Positions 1,011-16,990 of a stretch of DNA of 64,000 bases are shown here, piece by piece. Position 1 is the first letter of the stretch; the number at the start of each line of letters is the position of its first letter. The notes under the pieces were generated by a model, which saw nothing but the letters and a program-made list of their open reading frames with translations, made no database searches and was not told the DNA's origin. The position numbers and the translations under genes were made by a program. The stretch comes from Escherichia coli. Its GTDB lineage: Bacteria; Pseudomonadota; Gammaproteobacteria; Enterobacterales; Enterobacteriaceae. Location of the stretch: the NCBI GenBank assembly GCA_002099625.1, contig GCA_002099625.1_4857.1; one strand, given 5' to 3'.

Positions 1011-4000
1011 ATGGCAAAAAGAGGCAAAGACGGTTTCGATGATATCGATTTAGATAGACTCGACGACTGGGATGATTTCGGTGAACCACCCCGTCCCAAA
1101 GACGAGAAAAAACGAAGCCCGATACTCAGTACCCTGAATGTTGCCAGGAAGTCGGCGTTGTCAACTATCTGGCCAGAAGGGAAACGCGACCAAGTTATCC
1201 TCAAGGGGATGCCTAAGCCGGCAGCTGATGCATACGAGGGCTATCAGTCAGCGGCAGCTGCAGCAAAGGACATTTACGCCCATACGAAAGGGGAGCTTGA
1301 GAAGACCGAGCGCACGCTGAAGATGCAAGCGCGTCAACTCGGTCCGACAATGAAGAAATACTTGCCGGATGCAGTTACTAAACGCTTCGACAAGTGGTCA
1401 AAATCTGACCAGTTAGATTACCAGAACTACGATCCGAATCAGGCATTGATGGATCGTGAACTGGGCGACGTATTCTCAGGTGTGCCAAAGGACGCCGATG
1501 AGCAACGTCAGCTGCAGGATCGCATGGTAGAGGACAAGCTCCGTGACAGCATCAAAGAGATGCGCGCGGATGCAATGCACCAAACCATGATTGGGATGGC
1601 GAAAGATATTAACCTGTTAACCGGGTTAAGCCGTGGGGTATTCTTAAACATCGAGCGTAAGAAGCTCGAATTGCAATACCGCACCCTGTTCGCCATTCAA
1701 GACATCGTGAAGATGAAGCAGTCGGAGTTCGATCGTAACACGCCTGCTTTAGAAGCCATCGTGAAGAACACGGCACTGCCGGATTACGCGAAGGAAGATT
1801 TCTCAGAAGTCCGTTGGGCGAACGTTAAACGCCAGGCTGCGGAATGGATGAACCCGTTGCGTTATGCTGACGGGTTTATGGACATGATTCGCGAAAATAC
1901 CAAGAAGAAAATTTCTGGTATATTTGGCGAAGGTCGTGGTTTGTTAGAGTCCGTTCTCGGCATGGGTGTTGAAGACGATTTCGGCATGAGCGATAGCTCT
2001 TCGTTGACTGCCGAACGTCGCAAAACAAATGCTCGCGATAAAGCAACTGCATGGGGTAGCGGATTCCTTGCGAAGAAACTACTCGGCCCACAAATCGAGA
2101 AACTCCAGAAATGGACTCGTGAGGAGATGGAGAAAAATCCAGAGGTCATGAAACGCCTGCAGAAGGGCGCGTTCACCTTTGGTAATCTTTCCTCTATCTC
2201 GAACTCAGCTATCGCAGGCGAAACGCAAGGACCGTTGGCGGATTTGTTCCGGGTATTGAATGAACTCGGTATTGTCCAACCGTTAAACCGCGAGAAAGCT
2301 TTTCTTGATGAGCGTAATGGCGAAACGTTAAGCCGTTCGGCGAAGTTTGACCGCAAAGCGTATCTTAGCATAGTTGAAGTTATTCCTGCCTGGCTGGCAG
2401 AGATTAACAAATCTGTTCGTCGTGGCTATGGCGAACATGCCGACCTGGAATATGACATCACCAGCCGTGGTTTCGTAGACCGCAAAGTGGTCGGTAATCG
2501 TGTACGAAAAGCGGTTGCAAATGATGAGCAGCGTCTGCGTCTTCAGAATTCCATTAATAGCACTGTGGATTTTGTTGACCGCGGCAAAACACTCTCGCAG
2601 AAGGATCGTCAGCATCTTGCCGACTATATTGAGTCGCGTGCCTCGCAGGGCCGTGCATTCGACGTAGAAGCAATTTTGAAAGACCCGATGCATCTTCATC
2701 GGTATATGCCAGGAAACTCTGCAGAACGCATTAAGGAAGCGTTACAGGGGCATTCTGATAGCCTGGTCGGTGGTAGCAACGAATTAAGTAACGAACTGGC
2801 TCGCAAAATCTCCACAGTGCAGTCATCTATCACCCAACGTCAGGCAATTATCGACGAGGCGGTGAATATTTACGGCGAGCGAGCGTTGCGTGATGCGGGT
2901 ATCTTTAACTACGACGCGAAGAGTGACACCTTCGGCGTGGATAAAGACCTGTCCGATCCCTATACCTTGTTTAATGACTTGGCGATGGGTAAGACACGCA
3001 GCGGGCGTGCATTGACTCGTGACCAGGAGATTCAACGTAAGCTGCAAAATGGTTCGGCGTTAGGCGACTATCTGCGCCGAATGAACCAAGGGGCAAGTGG
3101 TGGTGCCGATGACACGTCGTTACCGCCGGCTTTACGTGGCGGTGGTAAAGGCCGCGGAATGTCGCCTCGGCAGCTAGCCGCGGTTCTCTACGGTGAAACC
3201 TCGACTAACTTTGTTGAATTGTTGAGTCAACGTAACCGTGGCGAAGAAGCGCCACGGAATAACTTTGACGGTATCATCGAAGCGATTCGGGGTAACAACA
3301 ACAGTGACACCCTCCAGAAAATTCTGGAACACGTCAGAAGCATGGACGAAGAAGGGGTTCTCCTGGCTTCGTTAGCAGGGGGTGCTGGTTCTGGCGATGA
3401 AGAAATGGGCCCGCCTCGCCCTGGCGGTGGTAGCGGTGGCGGTAAACGCCGTCGTATTATCATCGGTGAGGATGGGCTTATTCGTCGTTGGGGTGGTGTG
3501 TTGTTCGACACCGCAACAGGAATCGGCGGCTTTGCAAAACGTGGTGTTAAGGGTGCCTGGAATAAACTGAACCAGTTCGGTGGCTGGGCACGCGGTAAAG
3601 TCGCAGGAATGGGTGGCGGAGAAGGTCCTGGTTTCTTAACCCGGATGCGTGGCCTTATTAGTGGTAGTGTCCGTGGGGGCTTTGAAGCAGTAAGCTCTTT
3701 CGGTAAAGGACTACTGGGTATCCGCGACATTTACGATGACCACGGTAATGTTGTTCTGCAGGGCGCACGCCTGGAAGCTGGGGAATACTACCAGGTTATT
3801 GATGGTAAGATGGTTCAGTTGAAAACACTGGACGACATCAAGCTGGGGAGCGACATTGTTGACTCCGCAGGTAATCTGGTATTAGCGGCCGCTGACTTAG
3901 CCGCTGCGGGTAAACTCCGCTACTATAAAGGCGGGAAAATCCAAGCACTGACCCAAGGTCTGGCCAGTAAGATTGGTTTAGGCTTTAATAAGGTGGCTAA

Positions 4001-7000
4001 GCTACCGAAAAGGTTCCTGGATTTCCTGTCACCAAAAGCGGGCAGCATCGTTGGTAAGATTAAGGACTGGCTGAACGAGATTCCGGAAGGCGAAGAAAAG
4101 ACACGTCTCCAGAAAGCGTTCAACCGTGTAACGAGCTTACCGGGTAAAGTGCTCGGTTTTGCGAAACGTGGTGTCGATCGTCTGAAAGACATGATTACCG
4201 ACAACCCACTGACGCGTTGGTGGAAAGGCCGTAAAGATGGTGGGGGTGGTGGTTTCAGTCTCTTCTCATCAACCGGCAAGAAAACCAACCACATCCTTAT
4301 CCGTATCTATAAACTGTTGAACCAACGTTTACCGGGAGATCCGGAAGACGAAAGTTGGACAGAGGAAATGGAGAAGGGCGTCGGGGGTGGCGGTAGTACG
4401 ATCGGTCGTGCAGTACGCGGGGCGTATGATCGTGCGAAAGCGTCATTGTCTGAACGTTTTGGTGGACGTTGGTCAAGAACAAAAGCGTTCTTTGGTCGTG
4501 GACGTGACCGCCTGCGTGGTTGGTTCAGTGGTTTCCGAGGCCGGGCTGGGGATATGCTCGATGGATATCGTGGAGCACGACACGACATTGCTACACGTTA
4601 CGAAGTTGAACGTCGGTTGGCTGGACGCGATGACGATGTTGCTGAGTTTTATCGCAGCCATTTGAACGCGAAAGGTGGCCTTTCTGGCCGTAAAGTCTAC
4701 GGCGATGCGAAGGAAGACCTTGAGACCGCACGTGATGCAGCAGGGAGGGTTATTAACAAAGGGAAGAATGCTGCCAAGTCTGCAGGTGCAAGGTTATTCG
4801 AACGCTTGGACCGAATGATTGGCTTGCAAGAGATGTCGTGGTTTAACACCATGCGCGAATCAGTATCCCGTGCAGGTGGTGACGATGGCATTATTCGCAC
4901 CATGTTTGCGAAGTTCGGTAAACGTAACAAGCCGCCTGAAGGTGATGAAAAACGCGACTACTTTAACTTCTTCAAACGTTGGCGTGAGAAACGTAAGGAG
5001 AAGAAAGAGAAAGCGCAGGGCTCCAAAGGGAAATCTGGCGGTCTGTGGGATATGGTGAAAGGCTTACCTATCATCGGCCCCATCGTCAGTATCTTGGGAA
5101 CTGTGGGTAATATACTCGGTTCTATCACGAAATGGGGGGTGTTAAAACCCGTAGGTCTTTTAGGTAAGGCTGCGTGGAACGTTGGTAAGTTCGCAGTAAC
5201 CCGTTTGGCGGCACCCGCGGTGTCCGCTGTGGCAACTGCGGCATCTGCCGTCGTGACAGCAGTGGGCTGGCCGGCAATTCTTATCGGTGGCGCGATCGCT
5301 GCGGCAGGTTACGCCGCGTACAAGATCGCAACGACTACCTATACCCAGTACCTGGATAAGATGCGTTTAGCTCAGTACGGTTTCCGTGATTACGATAAGT
5401 GGTCGTCGGACGACGGGGCGAAGGCGCGTTACTTAGAAGACGCATTGCGTGAGTATGTGTCTTACGCGGAAGATGGCCAAGCCAGTCTCCGCGGACTAAG
5501 TGGAAAAGACGTTCAGAAGTTAGCTGAAGGGTTCGGTATCAACGTTGAGGAAAAAGGCGAGATGTTGGCCTTCCAAGCGTTTATGCTTCAGCGCTTCATT
5601 CCGATTTATCTCCGCTGGATTACGGCACTGAAATCGATGCCGAACAGTATCCAGTTGGCTGACGTCGGCGATGCGAAGAAAGTATCGAAAGAGGACATGC
5701 AGACACTCTTCAACAAAATGAAGATGACTAAGGATGCAAAAGCGTTCTCTTCGTTAACTGACCCACGCAAAGTCAACCAAGGTTTCTTCTCGAAAGCTTG
5801 GGACGTTGTAACCTTTACACCGAAGGAGTTTTTGAGCGGTGAAGAGGTTATGGAAGTGCAGAATGAAGTTGAGCGTGCAATCAAGTTCAGAATGGACGAT
5901 AAGAAAGCACGTAAGTACGGAATGGCACCGGCTGTAGAGGGGATTAAGTCCGCGGGCGTTGATGAAGCTATCAACAAACTTGGACAGTTGGATAACGAAC
6001 GTAATAAAAATCTGGCGAAGGTAGAGGGTTGGGAAGACGGAACAGAGCAGGTTCAGATTCAGGTAGACTGGAATGCGGTGCTCGACCAGAAAGACATGAA
6101 TGCGATGGAGTCGGTACGTTGGAAGACTTATGGTTTTACCACCATCGACAACGCCACACGCACGTTGATTACGGTATTCGAGAAAAACGTCATCAAAGAC
6201 ATTGACGTGAAAACCGCAAGCTACAAAGGTGATTGGAAGAAAGCAATCGCCTCAATGGTTCCAGACGCTATCGGCACACCGAAAGAAGATCGTTTGAAGC
6301 GGTGGTTCTTTGACCGTTTCTTACCGGTATTCATGACGTACTTGGTTGGGGTGAAACGCTACCTGCCAACAGCTGATCCGCTGAACTTGAAACTGACCGG
6401 CGGTTACCTGTACGAAATCAGTTTGATGATGTCAACAGCTTATAGCTTGAAGGGCGGTATAAGACAGTCGGTGTGGGAAGTGAATATCAACCCATTAGGG
6501 GGCGATGCTAACACTAATCCGTCGTCTATCAAAGCCGAGCTGGAAACGCTGAAGCTGTTATCAAAAGAAGCTGACCTTGCCGTGCGTAACATGATTAAAG
6601 CCATTAAAAATAATGGCAAGCGTGCACGCTGGAAGGATCGTAACAAGAACCGCAGTTCTCTGGAAGTCACCGGTGAAGATGAAGAAGACTCGAACATCAG
6701 TTCGGGAGATTCTTTGTCATCTGACGGTGCTCGCGCCTCAGGCTACATTCCATCGGGCACGAGTGGCGGTGTGCCGGGTAACTTAGGTCAAGTCGTCGAT
6801 GCGGTTGGTGGTGTGCGGAACTACGCTGCAATGACCACTGGTTCGTCGTCGATTAACCTGAGTGATGTGAAAGACGGTGATTATAAGTCACTGGCTGAAA
6901 AATACCCGATAGAAATGTTGGGTAGAAAGGGTGCGTTGAACGTTCCGAATATCAAAGCATTGATTACCGATGCAGCGAACATGATGGGCGTGCCACCTGC

Positions 7001-10425: not shown

Positions 10426-10977
10426 ATGAGTTTATTTGGAAAGACCGCAAAAGAGTTGGTTTACGATCTTATCGTGTCCCAGAATCCCGGACTGACTGGC
10501 AAGGGCGTGACCATCGATAAATTGTCGTTCGGTAACCCGTCGCACATCACCGCATCCGATCCTGACCCAGAACAGTACACCAGACTGAACACCAGTCTCG
10601 ATGTTTCTGGTATCGTTGAGAAAGGTACGTTTGGTAAGATGGGTCTTACTTACCGTCGACTGGACGTAGCTCACCTGTTTGAAAACGTGGTGCTGTCTGT
10701 GGACGGTAGTAGCGCCAATACAGCCGCCGACCTCGTTCCGTTGTTACAGGCCAAGTACAATTGGTTGATTGATGCGAGCGAGATTTATGCGACGGAGTCA
10801 ATGACGTCTTCCACGAAACACAATTTGCGTTTCAATGGAAAGTCACTGGCGTGGACGGGTACGGTTGAAGTTTATTTGACCGAAGTTCCGAGCGATGGTG
10901 TCGATATCAGTAAACTGATCACCGTTACCGAGTTGAACGGTCTGGTTTATGACATCTCTGACATGACTCAAGCGTAA
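10426..10977 (+). CDS. Hypothetical protein (183 aa)
   Basis: ATG with GAGGT RBS; followed by a bidirectional hairpin terminator. Confidence 0.6.
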   Translation: MSLFGKTAKELVYDLIVSQNPGLTGKGVTIDKLSFGNPSHITASDPDPEQYTRLNTSLDVSGIVEKGTFGKMGLTYRRLDVAHLFENVVLSVDGSSANTAADLVPLLQAKYNWLIDASEIYATESMTSSTKHNLRFNGKSLAWTGTVEVYLTEVPSDGVDISKLITVTELNGLVYDISDMTQA

Positions 10978-11035: not shown

Positions 11036-11454
11036 CGTTCAATAATCACTTTTACGATATCTTCTACCGGAGGGTAATACCACAGAACCACGCTGTTTCG
11101 TCCCAAGTCTTTTGGAAACGTTTGACAGTACGCAATGTCGGTGCCGAAGCGTTCAGAGAGCTTTAAAACGTTCTCTGGGAATTGACAGCCTCCTCGCCAA
11201 TCATGCGTATAGAGTACCTGCTGTAGTAACTTCACATTAGCATCGAAGAAGTACAGATTTTCTACCGGTGCAATGTGAGGTACCGGAATCGGTGTGTCGG
11301 TAAGTACGAACTCCAAACCACCGCATTGTTCTGAACGCTCCGCTAGGAATTTCAGATGCCATGGCATTAGACCGTGGTCTTCCCAGACGATGTTGTTGAC
11401 CAGTAAACGATCAACGTATTCATCGTAATCAACCGTGAACAGTTTCTTCGCCAT
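11032..11454 (-). CDS. Hypothetical protein (140 aa)
   Basis: ORF on minus strand, tightly packed with the upstream gene. Confidence 0.5.
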   Translation of the reverse strand: MAKKLFTVDYDEYVDRLLVNNIVWEDHGLMPWHLKFLAERSEQCGGLEFVLTDTPIPVPHIAPVENLYFFDANVKLLQQVLYTHDWRGGCQFPENVLKLSERFGTDIAYCQTFPKDLGRNSVVLWYYPPVEDIVKVIIER

Positions 11455-12343
11455 CTTTCACCTTCTGCTCAAGTTCAGCGGCAGTCATGTCTGCTTCTTT
11501 AACGAAGATACCGTCCGCGTTCAGGAAACCCTTACGGTCTTTGATTTCGTCCCACGCCAGAGAGAAGCACTGTTCCAGAGTCATATCGTACGCATTAGCC
11601 AGCGCATTGGCGTATTCGACCATCTGAGCGAAGTGACATTCGATCATTACCGCGTCGCTGTTCTCGAAGTGTTTATATTCGAGTTGCTTAGCTGAGTCGA
11701 TGCCGGCTTGATCCCAGATGTAATCAACAGCTGCTGTGAGATGGAAACGCATTTTGTGGAACAGGTAATGACTGTTCCCGGCAAGTGGGTTCTTTGAACG
11801 CGCTTCGTTGACATATGTGCTGATATCGGTCGAGTCAAACTTAATGAGTTCCATCAAGTTAACCAACACGACCAGAGCATCACCGATACCGTCCATGATG
11901 TAACGGCGTTTGTTTTTACTGATACCGGTTGCCGCTTCACCGTCTTCTTCGTAGAGTTTGGTGGCTTGGCTATACCAGACGCCGTTATCCAGAATACCAC
12001 GCGCTTTAGACCAACCCATAACGTTAGTAATACATTGTGGGATGGTGTACAAAGGTACGTAACGCGGACGATCAACCGTACCACGATACTCGACACCTTC
12101 CAACGTCCACGGCATTTCGAAATCATTTATTTCCAAACTCTGGTCGCCTGTGAATACTTTACCTTCGACGTAAGTGTGACCGGTTTCACTGTTCACGCAC
12201 AGGGTGTACAGTTTCTCAAAGGACCACGGTTCAACAAACTGACGTTGGCAGAATCCAGCCAGAAGCTCATTAATCTGTGCCAGGTACTGGTTAGGTTCAA
12301 CAATAACGTTATACGGAATCTGGATAATGAAACGGTCGCCCAT
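11429..12343 (-). CDS. Hypothetical protein with possible MazG-like all-alpha nucleotide pyrophosphohydrolase motifs
   Basis: AAGGAG RBS before ATG at 12343. Segments GDALVVLVNLMEL and EYANALANAYDMTLEQCFSLAWDEIKDRKG resemble MazG/dCTPase helices (weak, by eye). Confidence 0.5.
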   Translation of the reverse strand: MGDRFIIQIPYNVIVEPNQYLAQINELLAGFCQRQFVEPWSFEKLYTLCVNSETGHTYVEGKVFTGDQSLEINDFEMPWTLEGVEYRGTVDRPRYVPLYTIPQCITNVMGWSKARGILDNGVWYSQATKLYEEDGEAATGISKNKRRYIMDGIGDALVVLVNLMELIKFDSTDISTYVNEARSKNPLAGNSHYLFHKMRFHLTAAVDYIWDQAGIDSAKQLEYKHFENSDAVMIECHFAQMVEYANALANAYDMTLEQCFSLAWDEIKDRKGFLNADGIFVKEADMTAAELEQKVKDGEETVHG

Positions 12344-12354
12344 TTTGATAGCTC

Positions 12355-13868: not shown

Positions 13869-14132
13869 TTATTTCTCCATTGTTTTAAAGAGAACGTCTA
13901 CGCTGTTACGGAGCATATTCAATTCTTCTTCTTTCTTACGCAGCAGCATTTCAGGAGCGTTCTTTGCAAACTCTTTCAATGCCATTTGGACGACATGCGA
14001 ATCGGTTTCGTCCGGGAACAGGGCCTTTAATGCAACCCATTCTTCCGCCGTGAAAACATCGCCTTTGCGAACATTACGCTGTTGTGGTAGTCGAATTGTT
14101 TTACTGAGTCGGTCAGTCATAGCTCCACCCAA
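13869..14132 (-). CDS. Hypothetical protein (about 87 aa)
   Basis: ORF in array; start uncertain. Confidence 0.4.
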   Translation of the reverse strand: MGGAMTDRLSKTIRLPQQRNVRKGDVFTAEEWVALKALFPDETDSHVVQMALKEFAKNAPEMLLRKKEEELNMLRNSVDVLFKTMEK

Positions 14133-14653
14133 ATCAGTTTAAAGGTATTACCTTCTAAGCCGGTCGGATGGATAATCATCGCTTCGGTATAGATAGGCTC
14201 TTCTTCTGCAATACGGTGCTCAGCTGCTAAGCCTGAAAGGTGCATGTAGAGGTCTTCATCCATATCCCCGTTAAAAGATGAGGTCAGGATGAAAGGTGTG
14301 GATTCTGCGATTTGCAAAAGCGTTTCTTTGCTAATCTGCATCTCCATTGTCCGACGTCGTTCCATCCAACTGCCTTGTTCGTGGATATACGGGTCGGTAT
14401 TAATGCGAACGACAGGTTCCGTAGACATACCCAGACCACGCGACATCATCTGGATAGCCAGAAGCGTCCACCATTCTTGTTCAGCTATCGGGAAACCGAT
14501 GGCTTTCATTGTACCGTCTGGTTGTGGAACGTGCAATTGTCCACGATGTTCGTCTGGAAACTCGATGATCTTCTGTCCGTTGATAGGAATAAACGGCGGT
14601 TCGTCCGTAGCAACCACCGCTTTAGGCTTGAAGGGAACGACGTTGTCAGCCAT
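14117..14653 (-). CDS. Hypothetical protein (178 aa)
   Basis: ORF in array. Confidence 0.5.
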   Translation of the reverse strand: MADNVVPFKPKAVVATDEPPFIPINGQKIIEFPDEHRGQLHVPQPDGTMKAIGFPIAEQEWWTLLAIQMMSRGLGMSTEPVVRINTDPYIHEQGSWMERRRTMEMQISKETLLQIAESTPFILTSSFNGDMDEDLYMHLSGLAAEHRIAEEEPIYTEAMIIHPTGLEGNTFKLIWVEL

Positions 14654-14665
14654 AAACGCTCCTAA

Positions 14666-15703
14666 TTAGATAGCGACAGGTGCTTTAATTGGGTCGTGTG
14701 ATACGTAATCCTGGATCTCAAAATCATCGAACTTATAATCGAAGATAGATTCCGGTTTACGTTTGATGACCAGTTTCGCCAAAGGTAAAGGTTCGCGCGT
14801 CAGCTGCAGCTTGGCCTGCTCCAGATGGTTGGAGTACAGATGCACGTCACCGCCGCTCCAAACGAAATCGCCTGGCACCATGTTAACTTGCTGAGCTACC
14901 ATGTGTACGAGTAATGCGTAAGACGCGATATTGAACGGTACGCCAAGGAAAAAATCTGCACTACGTTGATAGAGCTGGCATGAAAGAATGCGGCGAGGTA
15001 TTTCAAGTGCGTCCATCTCAACGTGGAACACTGCGTCATCTGCTACAGCTTCATTACTAAAGCGGGAATCGTTAAATTGATCTGGAAGGTTCTTTTCAAA
15101 CCAATCAAGGCGCTCGTCGATAGACAGCTCACGAGTGTAGAACTGAAAGAACGCATGACACGGAGCTAACGCCATTTGATCCAACTCGCCCACGTTCCAT
15201 GCGCTGACAATAATACGACGACTGTCCGGGTCGTTACGCAGCTGGCCCATAACCGTCTGGATTTGGTCGTGCTCTTTCAGAAGTACACGCGCATCGAACA
15301 TTTGTGAACCATCGTCCGCGTCGCCATAATCTGCGTATCCAGCATCCTGCAGTTTCTCGAGTAAAGCTGCATTTTTCTTAGGCACCAGTTTCACATCTTT
15401 CCAACGTCTCCATTGTGCACCATAGATTTCACCTAGGTCACCGTTCTCATCTTGCCACTCACGCCAGATTGTGACCCCGTTGTCTTCCAGATATTTGGTG
15501 TTGGTGTCACCGTTAAGGAACCAGAGAAGTTCGTGAATAATAGAACGCAGGTGGAGTTTTTTAGTCGTGACTAACGGGAAGCCTTTGCGCAAATCAAAAC
15601 GCATTTGGCGACCAAAGACGGAGAGCGTCCCTGTCCCAGTACGATCGCCCTTAACATGCCCTTCATCCAGAATATTCTGCATCATTTCAAGATACTGTTT
15701 CAC
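14666..15703 (-). CDS. thyA: Thymidylate synthase (ThyA family) with two internal insertions
   Basis: Near-identical blocks to E. coli ThyA: [51 protein letters not shown] (catalytic Cys), [45 protein letters not shown] and C-terminal PIKAPVAI. Start re-picked at GTG 15703 with AAGGA RBS so the N-terminus matches MKQYLE. Confidence 0.85.
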
Positions 15704-15705
15704 AA

Positions 15706-16575
15706 TTATTTTCCTTTCAATAAATTCAAAATGTCTCTTAAATCGTCGTTCGCACAAATGTTTACGGCGTTACCGTCGAACTTAACATCAACGCGAGGGT
15801 TACGATTGAACAACATTTGTTTTCTTACTATCCACGGTTCAAAGTGCGCCTTGAGAAGCTCTTGCAGCTTTTCGTTCATAATGTCCTCCATCCGCAGCAA
15901 TAGCTGCGGCATGGCGACTTCACCGTTATGTTCGGTTTGTAAATCATTCGATGTGGCCAAAAGGCAATTTACAATAATGTCGTGAACTGACTCGTTGGTT
16001 TTGTACACCGTCTGATAGGTTTGTTTCGCCAAATCGTCGTCGGATAACGGCAACGATGCTTTGAGCAGTTCGCCGAGCGTGCTTGTCGTTTCAGGCGTCT
16101 TAACGAGCTTACGATGGCCATTAAAAACAACACGGTCAAACTCCAGCCCGCAACGACACGCCAACAATTGATACTGTCTCATCAACTTACGAAGCAGCGC
16201 GCTATAACTCTTAGCGTCAGGTTCTGGTTCACGCAAAACAACACTAACGGTCTCGACTGCAATTAACATGAGCTGCTGCAGTTGTCCTTCTTTCGTGCCA
16301 GTTGTAGTACGAACAGACACCGCATCACTCAACGGAACGACAATATCACCGAGGTTAGAATGTGGACCGAGGTGTAGCAGCGCGGCAAATGTCCAAATCG
16401 ATTCACCGATACCGGCAGCCACCTTTAAGTTATCCAGTTCATCGACACCTGCTGAGATCCTGCCGAGTGTGACGTAATACTTCACCAACTGACGTTCAGT
16501 CGCTTTCTGTTGGTAAATATCTGTCTTGCGAAACCACTCTTCGACTGCCTGAACTTGCTGAATGATGCTAGGCAC
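15706..16575 (-). CDS. Hypothetical protein (about 289 aa)
   Basis: ORF directly upstream of thyA; start re-picked at GTG 16575 with GGGAGGAAG RBS to limit overlap with the preceding gene. Confidence 0.5.
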
Positions 16576-16990
16576 AGACTTCTTCCTCCCGATACGCGTA
16601 GCAGATTGCAAAGTTAAGCTGGCCGGTTGCGCGAGAAACGACAACGGCGATAGTCTGGTCTTCCACACCCGACATCGGTGTGCCCTGGTTAACCATTTGA
16701 CCTGCGGCCTTGCTTACCGGACCCAGCAAACGCCAGCTGTACAGACGGCTACGTAACGCTGCGTTTTGTAAGAAAGCGGAGCCGCAATCATAGTCGACAT
16801 TAAACGCTGCAAACATTGGACCACAGTCTGCCATCGTGCCGTTTAACGGCAGCTCGCTCGTTACCACAATCTTCACAGGCTTGTCTTTGAGACGCTGTGC
16901 TAACGCTTCCCAGTTAGCGTTATTAGTGCCAGCGATGATGGTGTTGTTCAGAAGTAAGCCAACGCCTTTTTCAAACGCGATATTGTTCAT
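16568..16990 (-). CDS. Hypothetical protein (140 aa)
   Basis: ORF in array; no motif recognised. Confidence 0.45.
   Translation of the reverse strand: MNNIAFEKGVGLLLNNTIIAGTNNANWEALAQRLKDKPVKIVVTSELPLNGTMADCGPMFAAFNVDYDCGSAFLQNAALRSRLYSWRLLGPVSKAAGQMVNQGTPMSGVEDQTIAVVVSRATGQLNFAICYAYREEEVCA

Follow-up and report, generated by a model that had tools for sequence, protein, structure and literature searches.

The locus described here raises the question of how a thymidylate synthase (TS) closely related to the bacterial enzyme comes to carry two large extra segments, and of what these segments do. It lies in a 64,000-nucleotide (nt) stretch of DNA from contig GCA_002099625.1_4857.1 of an Escherichia coli assembly (the window), in which a ThyA-type TS gene occupies positions 14666–15703 on the minus strand as a single uninterrupted open reading frame (ORF) of 345 amino acids (aa) plus stop, the orthologue of SPN3US gp100 (ACQ60_gp037). 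We propose that two small folded domains have been grafted onto a gammaproteobacterial-type core, that both are old in the phage lineage, that the second belongs to a set of portable modules, and that they serve as surface adaptor domains for protein-protein contacts. Our confidence in this reading as a whole is about 0.6, a figure that blends two judgments: that the gene encodes a TS, that its inserts are real and old and that insert 2 is modular is, taken together, very probably correct, and the adaptor function that we infer for the inserts is a tentative suggestion.

Judged by its residue content, the ORF is a catalytically complete ThyA-type TS. The identity assigned in a first-pass annotation, made from the sequence of the window, is supported by a match to Pfam PF00303 (E 3.7e-112; 374 bits against a cutoff of 24.3) and by two NCBIfam TS equivalog models (NF002499, 434 bits against a cutoff of 405; NF002497, 412 against 327); apart from TS, Pfam matches nothing in the protein. 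We looked for loss of catalytic residues and saw none, all 17 of the catalytic and ligand-binding residues checked being kept (in E. coli numbering R21, E58, W80, W83, Y94, R126, R127, C146, H147, Q165, R166, S167, D169, N177, H207, Y209 and the C-terminal Ile). In the numbering of the window protein, the nucleophile is C182 within an APCH motif (E. coli C146; codon at 15158–15160, minus strand, placed by residue mapping), the phosphate-binding arginines R21, R162, R163 and R247 are all present, and the uracil-specifying Asn is N258 (E. coli N177). The interface strands FFQFY and LSCQLYQRS are conserved, and the C-terminal PVAI is the same as in E. coli TS, where this segment closes the active site. 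The enzyme most likely makes dTMP from dUMP and methylene-tetrahydrofolate, and the inserts, whose positions avoid the catalytic motifs, would leave catalysis untouched.

The borders of the inserts were taken from a phmmer comparison of the protein with PDB sequences, in which the match to E. coli TS falls into three blocks (window residues 1–102, 145–191 and 240–345, corresponding to E. coli 1–102, 109–155 and 159–264). Insert 1 (residues 103–144; 15272–15397, minus strand) directly follows QWRRW and places 42 aa where E. coli has 6 (residues 103–108), a net gain of 36. Insert 2, strictly delimited (residues 192–239; 14987–15130, minus strand), directly follows FFQFY(TR) and places 48 aa where E. 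coli has 3, a net gain of 45, giving 81 residues beyond E. coli TS for the two together. It takes the place of the three-residue turn of a beta-hairpin, FFQFY / LSCQLYQRS, and the helical module that we describe below spans residues 190–239 (14987–15136, minus strand) within this hairpin. Two in-frame inserts of about 40–50 aa, after WRRW and FFQFY and without a counterpart in the host enzyme, had been noticed in the first-pass annotation, and the alignment bears out their sites and approximate sizes. A scan of bacteria with one genome per species likewise agrees that cellular counterparts are missing: the best 80 loci all encode a ThyA of 260–277 aa, none with inserts, the closest being those of Enterobacterales.

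The window comes from a nucleus-forming jumbo phage that resembles the giant Salmonella phage SPN3US (Seoulvirus, Chimalliviridae). Its TS gene is 90–93% nt identical to those annotated as TS in SPN3US and in some 30 further Seoulvirus jumbo phages, and the 17-kb stretch around it is 96% identical to SPN3US, a nucleus-forming member of Chimalliviridae (PMC13282480) whose TS is gp100 in the numbering of PMC5694885. We took the best 120 homologues from a collection of 5.8 billion proteins; 117 are full-length, all of 336–416 aa, with identity falling to 62–66%, and the sources of the hits are contigs of up to 220–245 kb and named jumbo phages of Salmonella, Escherichia and Erwinia. The two-insert architecture is common to Salmonella, Escherichia, Erwinia and Cronobacter jumbo phages at 62–66% identity, and conservation of the inserts in related phages, which the first-pass annotation had left as a check, is complete among the aligned representatives (both sites occupied in 33 of 33). 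Because jumbo phages spanning these host genera all carry both inserts at the same sites at this level of identity, the architecture is older than the split of the phage genera. Many TS loci from IMG/VR also have inserts at both sites, with at least 15 aa at the hairpin site in 31 of 80. In jumbo-phage records, including dozens in GenBank, insert-bearing TS is annotated simply as "thymidylate synthase".

An AlphaFold2 model built with the 33-sequence alignment (mean pLDDT 80.7) predicts that insert 1 is a beta-alpha-beta-beta mini-domain (strand 101–108, helix 112–120, strands 124–130 and 137–145; block-mean pLDDT 74–89) and that insert 2 is an acidic helical module (helices 195–205, 207–212, 217–221 and 223–232; block-mean pLDDT 86–94). 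The first-pass annotation had called both of them loops; they are real, in-frame inserts, but the prediction is of two folded mini-domains rather than loops, and insert 2 is homologous to free-standing small proteins. A Foldseek search of PDB with the full model returned only insert-less TS structures, the best being that of E. coli at a query-normalised TM-score (TMq) of 0.65, whereas in a library of viral models the TS of Pseudomonas phage 201phi2-1 (457 aa) came first, at TMq 0.83. Because of this higher score, some or all of the extra structure is apparently present in the more distant chimalliviruses too.

The placement of insert 2 relative to the dimer can be approached through human TS, in which Y202 sits on the edge of the contact surface between the monomers and touches F59', K47', T55' and D254' of its partner subunit (PMC9831607). 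The equivalent residue in the window TS, Y189, ends the first strand of the hairpin that bears insert 2. Starting one residue beyond Y189, insert 2 would emerge at the rim of the dimer interface; by our own reasoning, this is the hairpin end opposite the catalytic Cys, the residue at the start of the same strand. The loop that carries insert 1, after QWRxW, is what we take to be the site of the first eukaryote-specific insert of human TS, and it presumably differs from the small-domain site of Lactobacillus casei TS.

Profile searches place insert 2 in a family of portable modules that are found at two sites in TS, in tandem in non-TS proteins and as free-standing ORFs. The module has the signature [LF][ST]xxERxx[WY] ... 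[LF]Dxxx[VI]PxR, and its N- and C-termini are adjacent. The profile was built from an alignment of 21 sequences (A2), and scores window residues 190–239 at 66 bits, the window sequence itself being among its sources. Run with HMMER against 1.84 billion representative proteins, this profile gave 16 matches at E <= 1e-3, of which most are members of the TS family that carry the module in the hairpin, as the window TS does. Three belong to other proteins, namely P0122 (58 aa, E 1.2e-6), P0131 (49 aa, E 7e-5) and P0127 (161 aa, with two tandem copies). The second TS site is the small-domain position, which carries a copy of the module in P0123, P0124, P0128, P0132, P0135, L011, P0117 and P0126; for P0124, P0128 and P0132 the match does not depend on the sequences that trained the profile. 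An AlphaFold2 model of free-standing P0122 (pLDDT about 80) has helices at 15–25, 27–34 and 41–50, and a small bridge joins its N- and C-terminal residues; this predicted layout matches that of insert 2, with a geometry that would suit insertion into a hairpin.

Some free-standing copies adjoin a TS gene. The P0131 ORF lies in an 86-kb phage-like contig (L170) downstream of a 464-aa TS, with a second module-like ORF of 77 aa between them; the TS and the two module ORFs overlap at their stop and start codons, and the local E-values are 1e-9 and 1.5e-4. A tblastn search of 50,697 phage genomes with the free-standing ORFs hit 16 records, in 13 of which the match is inside an annotated TS gene (in jumbo phages CR5, EC001, Lh1B, SA002, KpLz-2_45, STsAS, SPAsTU and Asesino) and in 2 more of which the record is unannotated. 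The remaining hit (E 4e-6) is Pseudomonas phage Viktualia CDS0064 (L172, 3776–4126), a two-module protein of 116 aa that overlaps the stop codon of the phage's own 460-aa TS. Viktualia and L170 (module ORFs at 3771–4150) have a common neighbourhood, NAPRTase ... TS, module protein(s), ... RNA ligase, and from this arrangement the module ORFs of the group are read as translationally coupled to TS.

The other searches with the inserts bound this family. The insert 2 profile found nothing significant among PDB sequences, and hence no solved structure with the module; neither Pfam nor PHROGs gave a family above threshold for the module or the free-standing ORFs, and we found no curated family for it. 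Membership of the HeH / SAP / Ish1 clan was considered and rejected, the match being a sub-threshold one to Pfam Ish1 (E 0.0013) in one free-standing relative, whose C-terminal helix and WLDxxGVP segment resemble those motifs. A word-indexed search with the module alignment found 4 proteins and is too insensitive for so short and divergent a profile. Within the 64-kb window, insert 2 is the single copy of the module. Insert 1 behaves differently, in that a search of all fetched ORFs with its profile returned TS proteins alone, with the match at the same site, and no free-standing copies.

The two inserts are much more variable in sequence than the enzyme core. Among the 33 representatives the mean pairwise identity is 79% in the core, 24% in insert 1 and 31% in insert 2, although insert lengths are kept; the invariant positions are G122 in insert 1 and E197, P236 and R238 in insert 2, and insert 2 is acidic in all 33 sequences (net charge −2 to −10). 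In a set of eight close relatives, dN/dS is 0–0.21 for insert 1 and 0.07–0.14 for the core, and insert 1 is under purifying selection. Insert 2 shows 0–1 nonsynonymous and 1–2 synonymous differences among these relatives, too few to judge dN/dS, and the value of 0.69 against EC001 compares non-orthologous cassettes. At the DNA level we saw no excess secondary structure in either insert (fold z −0.30 for insert 1 and +1.07 for insert 2). An 11-nt direct repeat, TGAAAGAA[T/C]GC, flanks insert 2 at 14981–14991 and 15144–15154; we treat it as a coincidence, about 6 such pairs being expected by chance in 1.2 kb by our own estimate.

Comparison with close relatives shows that the TS alleles are mosaics of blocks shared with different Seoulviruses. 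The TS locus (14100–15760) is a local divergence hot spot relative to SPN3US and L082–L087. Against a background of about 98% nt identity between the window and SPN3US, the TS core is 85–92% identical (dS 0.4–0.65) and the gene downstream of TS (14117–14653) is 83–85% identical, whereas the DNA of insert 2 is 99% identical (dS about 0.035). In a block-wise comparison with seven comparators, TS codons 1–40 are identical to those of SPFM4 and codons 281–345 nearly identical to those of EC001, and codons 61–100 and 141–160 differ from all seven. EC001 and Lh1B carry a different insert 2, which is 93% nt identical to that of the TS of Erwinia phage Caitlin over 189 nt (EC001: L087, 2040–2240); the other Seoulviruses match only the first 53 nt of this 189-nt query. 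The EC001 gene upstream of TS is just 42% identical to that of the window. These similarities indicate that insert 2 has been exchanged recently between phage genera as a cassette, with recombination in the conserved flanks swapping the module between phage TS genes.

In SPLA3, an HNH / restriction-endonuclease-family gene (phrog_8790, phrog_374; L086, 736–1503) lies directly upstream of TS, overlaps the TS start and takes the place of some of the gene normally found upstream. Its product, as a free-standing homing endonuclease, may be what promotes gene conversion at the TS locus, and such an activity would explain both the patchy gene conversion of the core and the replacement of a divergent insert as a whole cassette.

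The relation of this gene to host thyA is more distant than the first-pass annotation had it, where the core was described as nearly identical to E. coli ThyA and the last 70 residues as almost residue-identical. The core blocks are 76% identical (194 of 255 residues) and the last 70 residues match at 50 positions, and at the DNA level 72% of the gene can be aligned with E. coli thyA, at 71% identity. The phage core is 74–78% identical to every Enterobacterales ThyA tested and 75% identical to that of Aeromonas, whereas these bacterial enzymes are 85–97% identical to E. coli ThyA. A neighbour-joining tree of the core columns, which is a rough tree with no support values, places the phage clade outside the group formed by Aeromonas and Enterobacterales.

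We weighed these observations against several other explanations, some of which concern the gene itself. That the inserts are artefacts or intervening sequence that is removed, through a mis-called frame, an intron or an intein, has next to no probability. Phage T4 td does carry a group I intron, and one metagenomic relative, the 821-aa TS P0135, has an intein-like insertion exactly at the catalytic Cys (ALPPC/FTGDT ... THN/CHSFFQF) together with two copies of the helical module. The window gene, however, has one open frame that is conserved in more than 100 homologues with differing insert sequences, which also disposes of the mis-called frame that the first-pass annotation had named as a way to overturn its claim, and the inserts show selection at the codon level. 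Scans of the window with Rfam (at the gathering threshold) and for tRNAs gave no match anywhere, and with the ORF continuous a group I or group II intron was rejected. At 42 and 48 aa the inserts are too short for an intein, which requires a Hint domain of about 130 aa or more, and they have no terminal Cys/Ser ... His-Asn motif, beginning with D/E and ending ...KE/H and ...RRI/L. A recent capture of thyA from an enterobacterium, with phage-specific loops gained later, would fit the Enterobacterales ThyA proteins being the nearest cellular relatives (56–58% identity over the full length, about 75–78% over the core) and the PVAI tetrapeptide and many other motifs being as in E. coli. This explanation, favoured in the first-pass annotation, is very improbable and is already contradicted by the 71% DNA identity, by the equal distance of the phage core from Enterobacterales and Aeromonas and its branching outside both, by an architecture common to jumbo phages of several host genera at 62–66% identity, and by the prediction of folded domains; the resemblance to host ThyA is instead ancient. 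We consider it similarly improbable that the protein is a TS-fold base-modifying enzyme, a dUMP or dCMP hydroxymethylase, with the inserts serving a DNA-modification pathway. Phage TS homologues do include hydroxymethylases, and some chimallivirus homologues have altered active-site strands, but the window TS keeps N177, Q165, E58, Y94, W80 and H147 (E. coli numbering) and the full C-terminal PVAI segment, and it scores above the curated NCBIfam equivalog cutoff. Since dCMP hydroxymethylases have Asp at the position of E. coli N177 and a divergent or absent TS C-terminal segment, the retained N258 and the TS-like C-terminus led us to reject that candidate. The active-site strand itself (TS residues 243–254) varies among Seoulvirus alleles: the window and SPN3US share one form, phages 1252, SPLA5c, SPLA3 and EC001 (L082, L084, L086 and L087) have QLYARSQDFFLGTP, which amounts to Q165A in E. 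coli numbering, and in homologues from more distant chimalliviruses the strand reads SCFYMMR, SCMLLAR or NCFFLMR, a possible sign of altered chemistry.

The remaining explanations concern what the inserts do. The "interaction or regulatory" role suggested in the first-pass annotation is plausible from the sequences, and several features of the module favour a binding function: because the same module is used at two TS sites, such a function would not be tied to one location on TS, and it is favoured further because the module occurs alone, in tandem and coupled to TS in trans in one phage group, and because its end-motifs are conserved and its surface is fast-evolving and always acidic. The adaptors that we propose would contact the partner subunit at the dimer rim or other phage nucleotide-metabolism proteins, and the dimer-rim position could serve to stabilise the homodimer or keep it private from the 76%-identical host enzyme. 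In PhiPA3 a TS-GFP fusion is excluded from the phage nucleus (PMC9067925), and by analogy TS probably works in the cytoplasm of the infected cell. The chief alternative, possible though on the whole unlikely, is that the inserts are neutral passengers, stable mini-domains tolerated in permissive surface loops of TS and spread by recombination, perhaps by a selfish element. It would account for insert identities of 24–31% beside a 79% core, for both sites being general insertion hot spots in viral TS, for one module at two TS sites and in unrelated small proteins, for the cassette swap, and for the homing-endonuclease-type gene beside TS in SPLA3. It fits less well with purifying selection on insert 1, with the high predicted fold confidence, with terminal motifs that are kept and an insert 2 that is acidic in 33 of 33 sequences, with the module ORFs coupled to TS in Viktualia and L170, and with the lengths of the 117 full-length proteins among the best 120 homologues, none of which is short enough for insert loss (336–416 aa). 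Nor is the insert DNA palindromic, as in Rickettsia palindromic elements; an element of that kind was rejected on the fold stability and on the single module copy in the window. A role as localisation determinants, in which patches on the surface would let TS cross the chimallin shell or keep it from doing so, is distinctly unlikely: insert-bearing TS is found chiefly in jumbo phages that form a nucleus (SPN3US-like, Erwinia and Cronobacter phages, 201phi2-1), but PhiPA3 TS-GFP is kept out of the nucleus (PMC9067925) and the module also occurs in phages and contigs not known as chimalliviruses, such as Viktualia (322 kb) and contigs of 20–90 kb. Several points weigh against the adaptor proposal too. 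There is no obvious partner gene in the window, where Pfam and PHROGs searches of the TS neighbours gave just a weak MazG-like match, and no free-standing module copy; just one phage group (L170 and Viktualia) supplies the free-standing ORFs that adjoin TS, and the other free-standing copies are not within 3–8 kb of a TS. The insert sequences are hypervariable, which is equally compatible with neutral passenger domains, the cytoplasmic-localisation data come from Pseudomonas phages and not from SPN3US, and where the inserts lie with respect to the active site and the partner subunit is drawn from sequence position and the human TS literature.

A more far-reaching possibility, which we regard as doubtful, is that insert 2 founds an undescribed family of small portable phage domains acting with TS either in cis, grafted in the interface hairpin or the small domain, or in trans, as one- or two-module proteins coupled to TS as in Viktualia. 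If this were true, the module would be a handle by which jumbo phages recruit, regulate or privatise TS, for example by docking it to phage nucleotide-metabolism proteins or by blocking mixed dimers with the 76%-identical host ThyA, and co-evolution with a partner would lie behind the fast replacement of whole cassettes.

The start of the gene and its surroundings can be described briefly. We place the start at a GTG (15701–15703, minus strand), 2 nt from the TAA stop of the upstream gene and preceded, 8 nt upstream, by a Shine-Dalgarno-like AAGGA read from the sequence (15712–15716, minus strand). It gives an N-terminus, MKQYLE, that aligns to residue 1 of E. coli ThyA, and SPLA3 and EC001 have ATG at the equivalent codon; a longer ORF call reaching 15757 is a mere upstream extension to TTG. 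In RefSeq, SPN3US ACQ60_gp037 (L001, 8022–9038) is called from an internal ATG as a protein of 338 aa, and the GTG seven codons upstream of that start has a ribosome-binding site and restores the conserved MKQYLE; the RefSeq start is therefore probably set 7 codons too late. The ORF upstream of TS (15706–16668, minus strand) has a weak match to MazG-like pyrophosphatase (phrog_715, E 7e-4), and in SPN3US a gene some 3 kb downstream of TS is annotated as a MazG nucleotide pyrophosphohydrolase (window about 11403–12344, minus strand). Such MazG-like genes near TS could supply dUMP or sanitise nucleotides. Two sharp 150-nt dips to 75% identity with SPN3US lie at 10681–10830 and 11431–11553 in the window, in surroundings of 93–99%.

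How, then, does this TS compare with those already known? Few enzymes have received as much attention from structural biologists as TS, and discussions of how an obligate dimer tolerates change have drawn on its insertion sites. The window enzyme itself was already known, as an annotated TS. It resembles ThyA of E. coli and other Enterobacterales (PDB 2TSC, 1TYS) in its fold, in all the catalytic and ligand-binding residues checked, in a core of 76% identity and in the terminal MKQYLE and PVAI, and differs in 81 extra insert residues that none of the best 80 cellular loci has, in a TMq of 0.65 and in a phage clade that falls outside Enterobacterales. The other jumbo-phage enzymes compared (SPN3US gp100; those of Erwinia phages Machina, Caitlin, Wellington and Asesino, of Cronobacter phage CR5, and of Pseudomonas phages 201phi2-1 and Viktualia) have inserts at the same two sites, but the insert sequences diverge strongly, some have a third insert, an additional copy of the module in the small domain, and some relatives have altered active-site strands.

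Lineage-specific surface insertions that leave catalysis intact, as the phage inserts would, are a feature of L. casei TS and of eukaryotic TS. The L. casei insert lies before GDLG and not after QWRxW, and the first eukaryotic insert has about 12 aa after QWRHF (in human TS), compared with 42 aa in insert 1. Surface insertions of T4 Td relative to E. coli TS were reportedly proposed to make contacts in the dNTP-synthesising complex; these are, we assume, of about 8–12 aa, at other positions and not independent domains, and to our knowledge T4 Td has no insertion in the FFQFY / LSCQ hairpin. We likewise know of no TS described with a domain in the interface hairpin. Our literature searches found no description of the TS inserts, nor of a folded domain in the interface hairpin, a second-site module or TS-adjacent free-standing copies. 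Rickettsia palindromic elements, which are said to be units of about 30–50 aa inserted in frame on the surfaces of many unrelated proteins with function preserved, differ in that their DNA is palindromic, whereas the module copies described here are conserved at the protein and not the DNA level. Beside these systems, the jumbo-phage TS offers a clean natural example of domain insertion and cassette exchange within a highly conserved enzyme, and its inserts could help to explain the way in which nucleotide synthesis is organised by giant phages outside the nucleus-like compartment.

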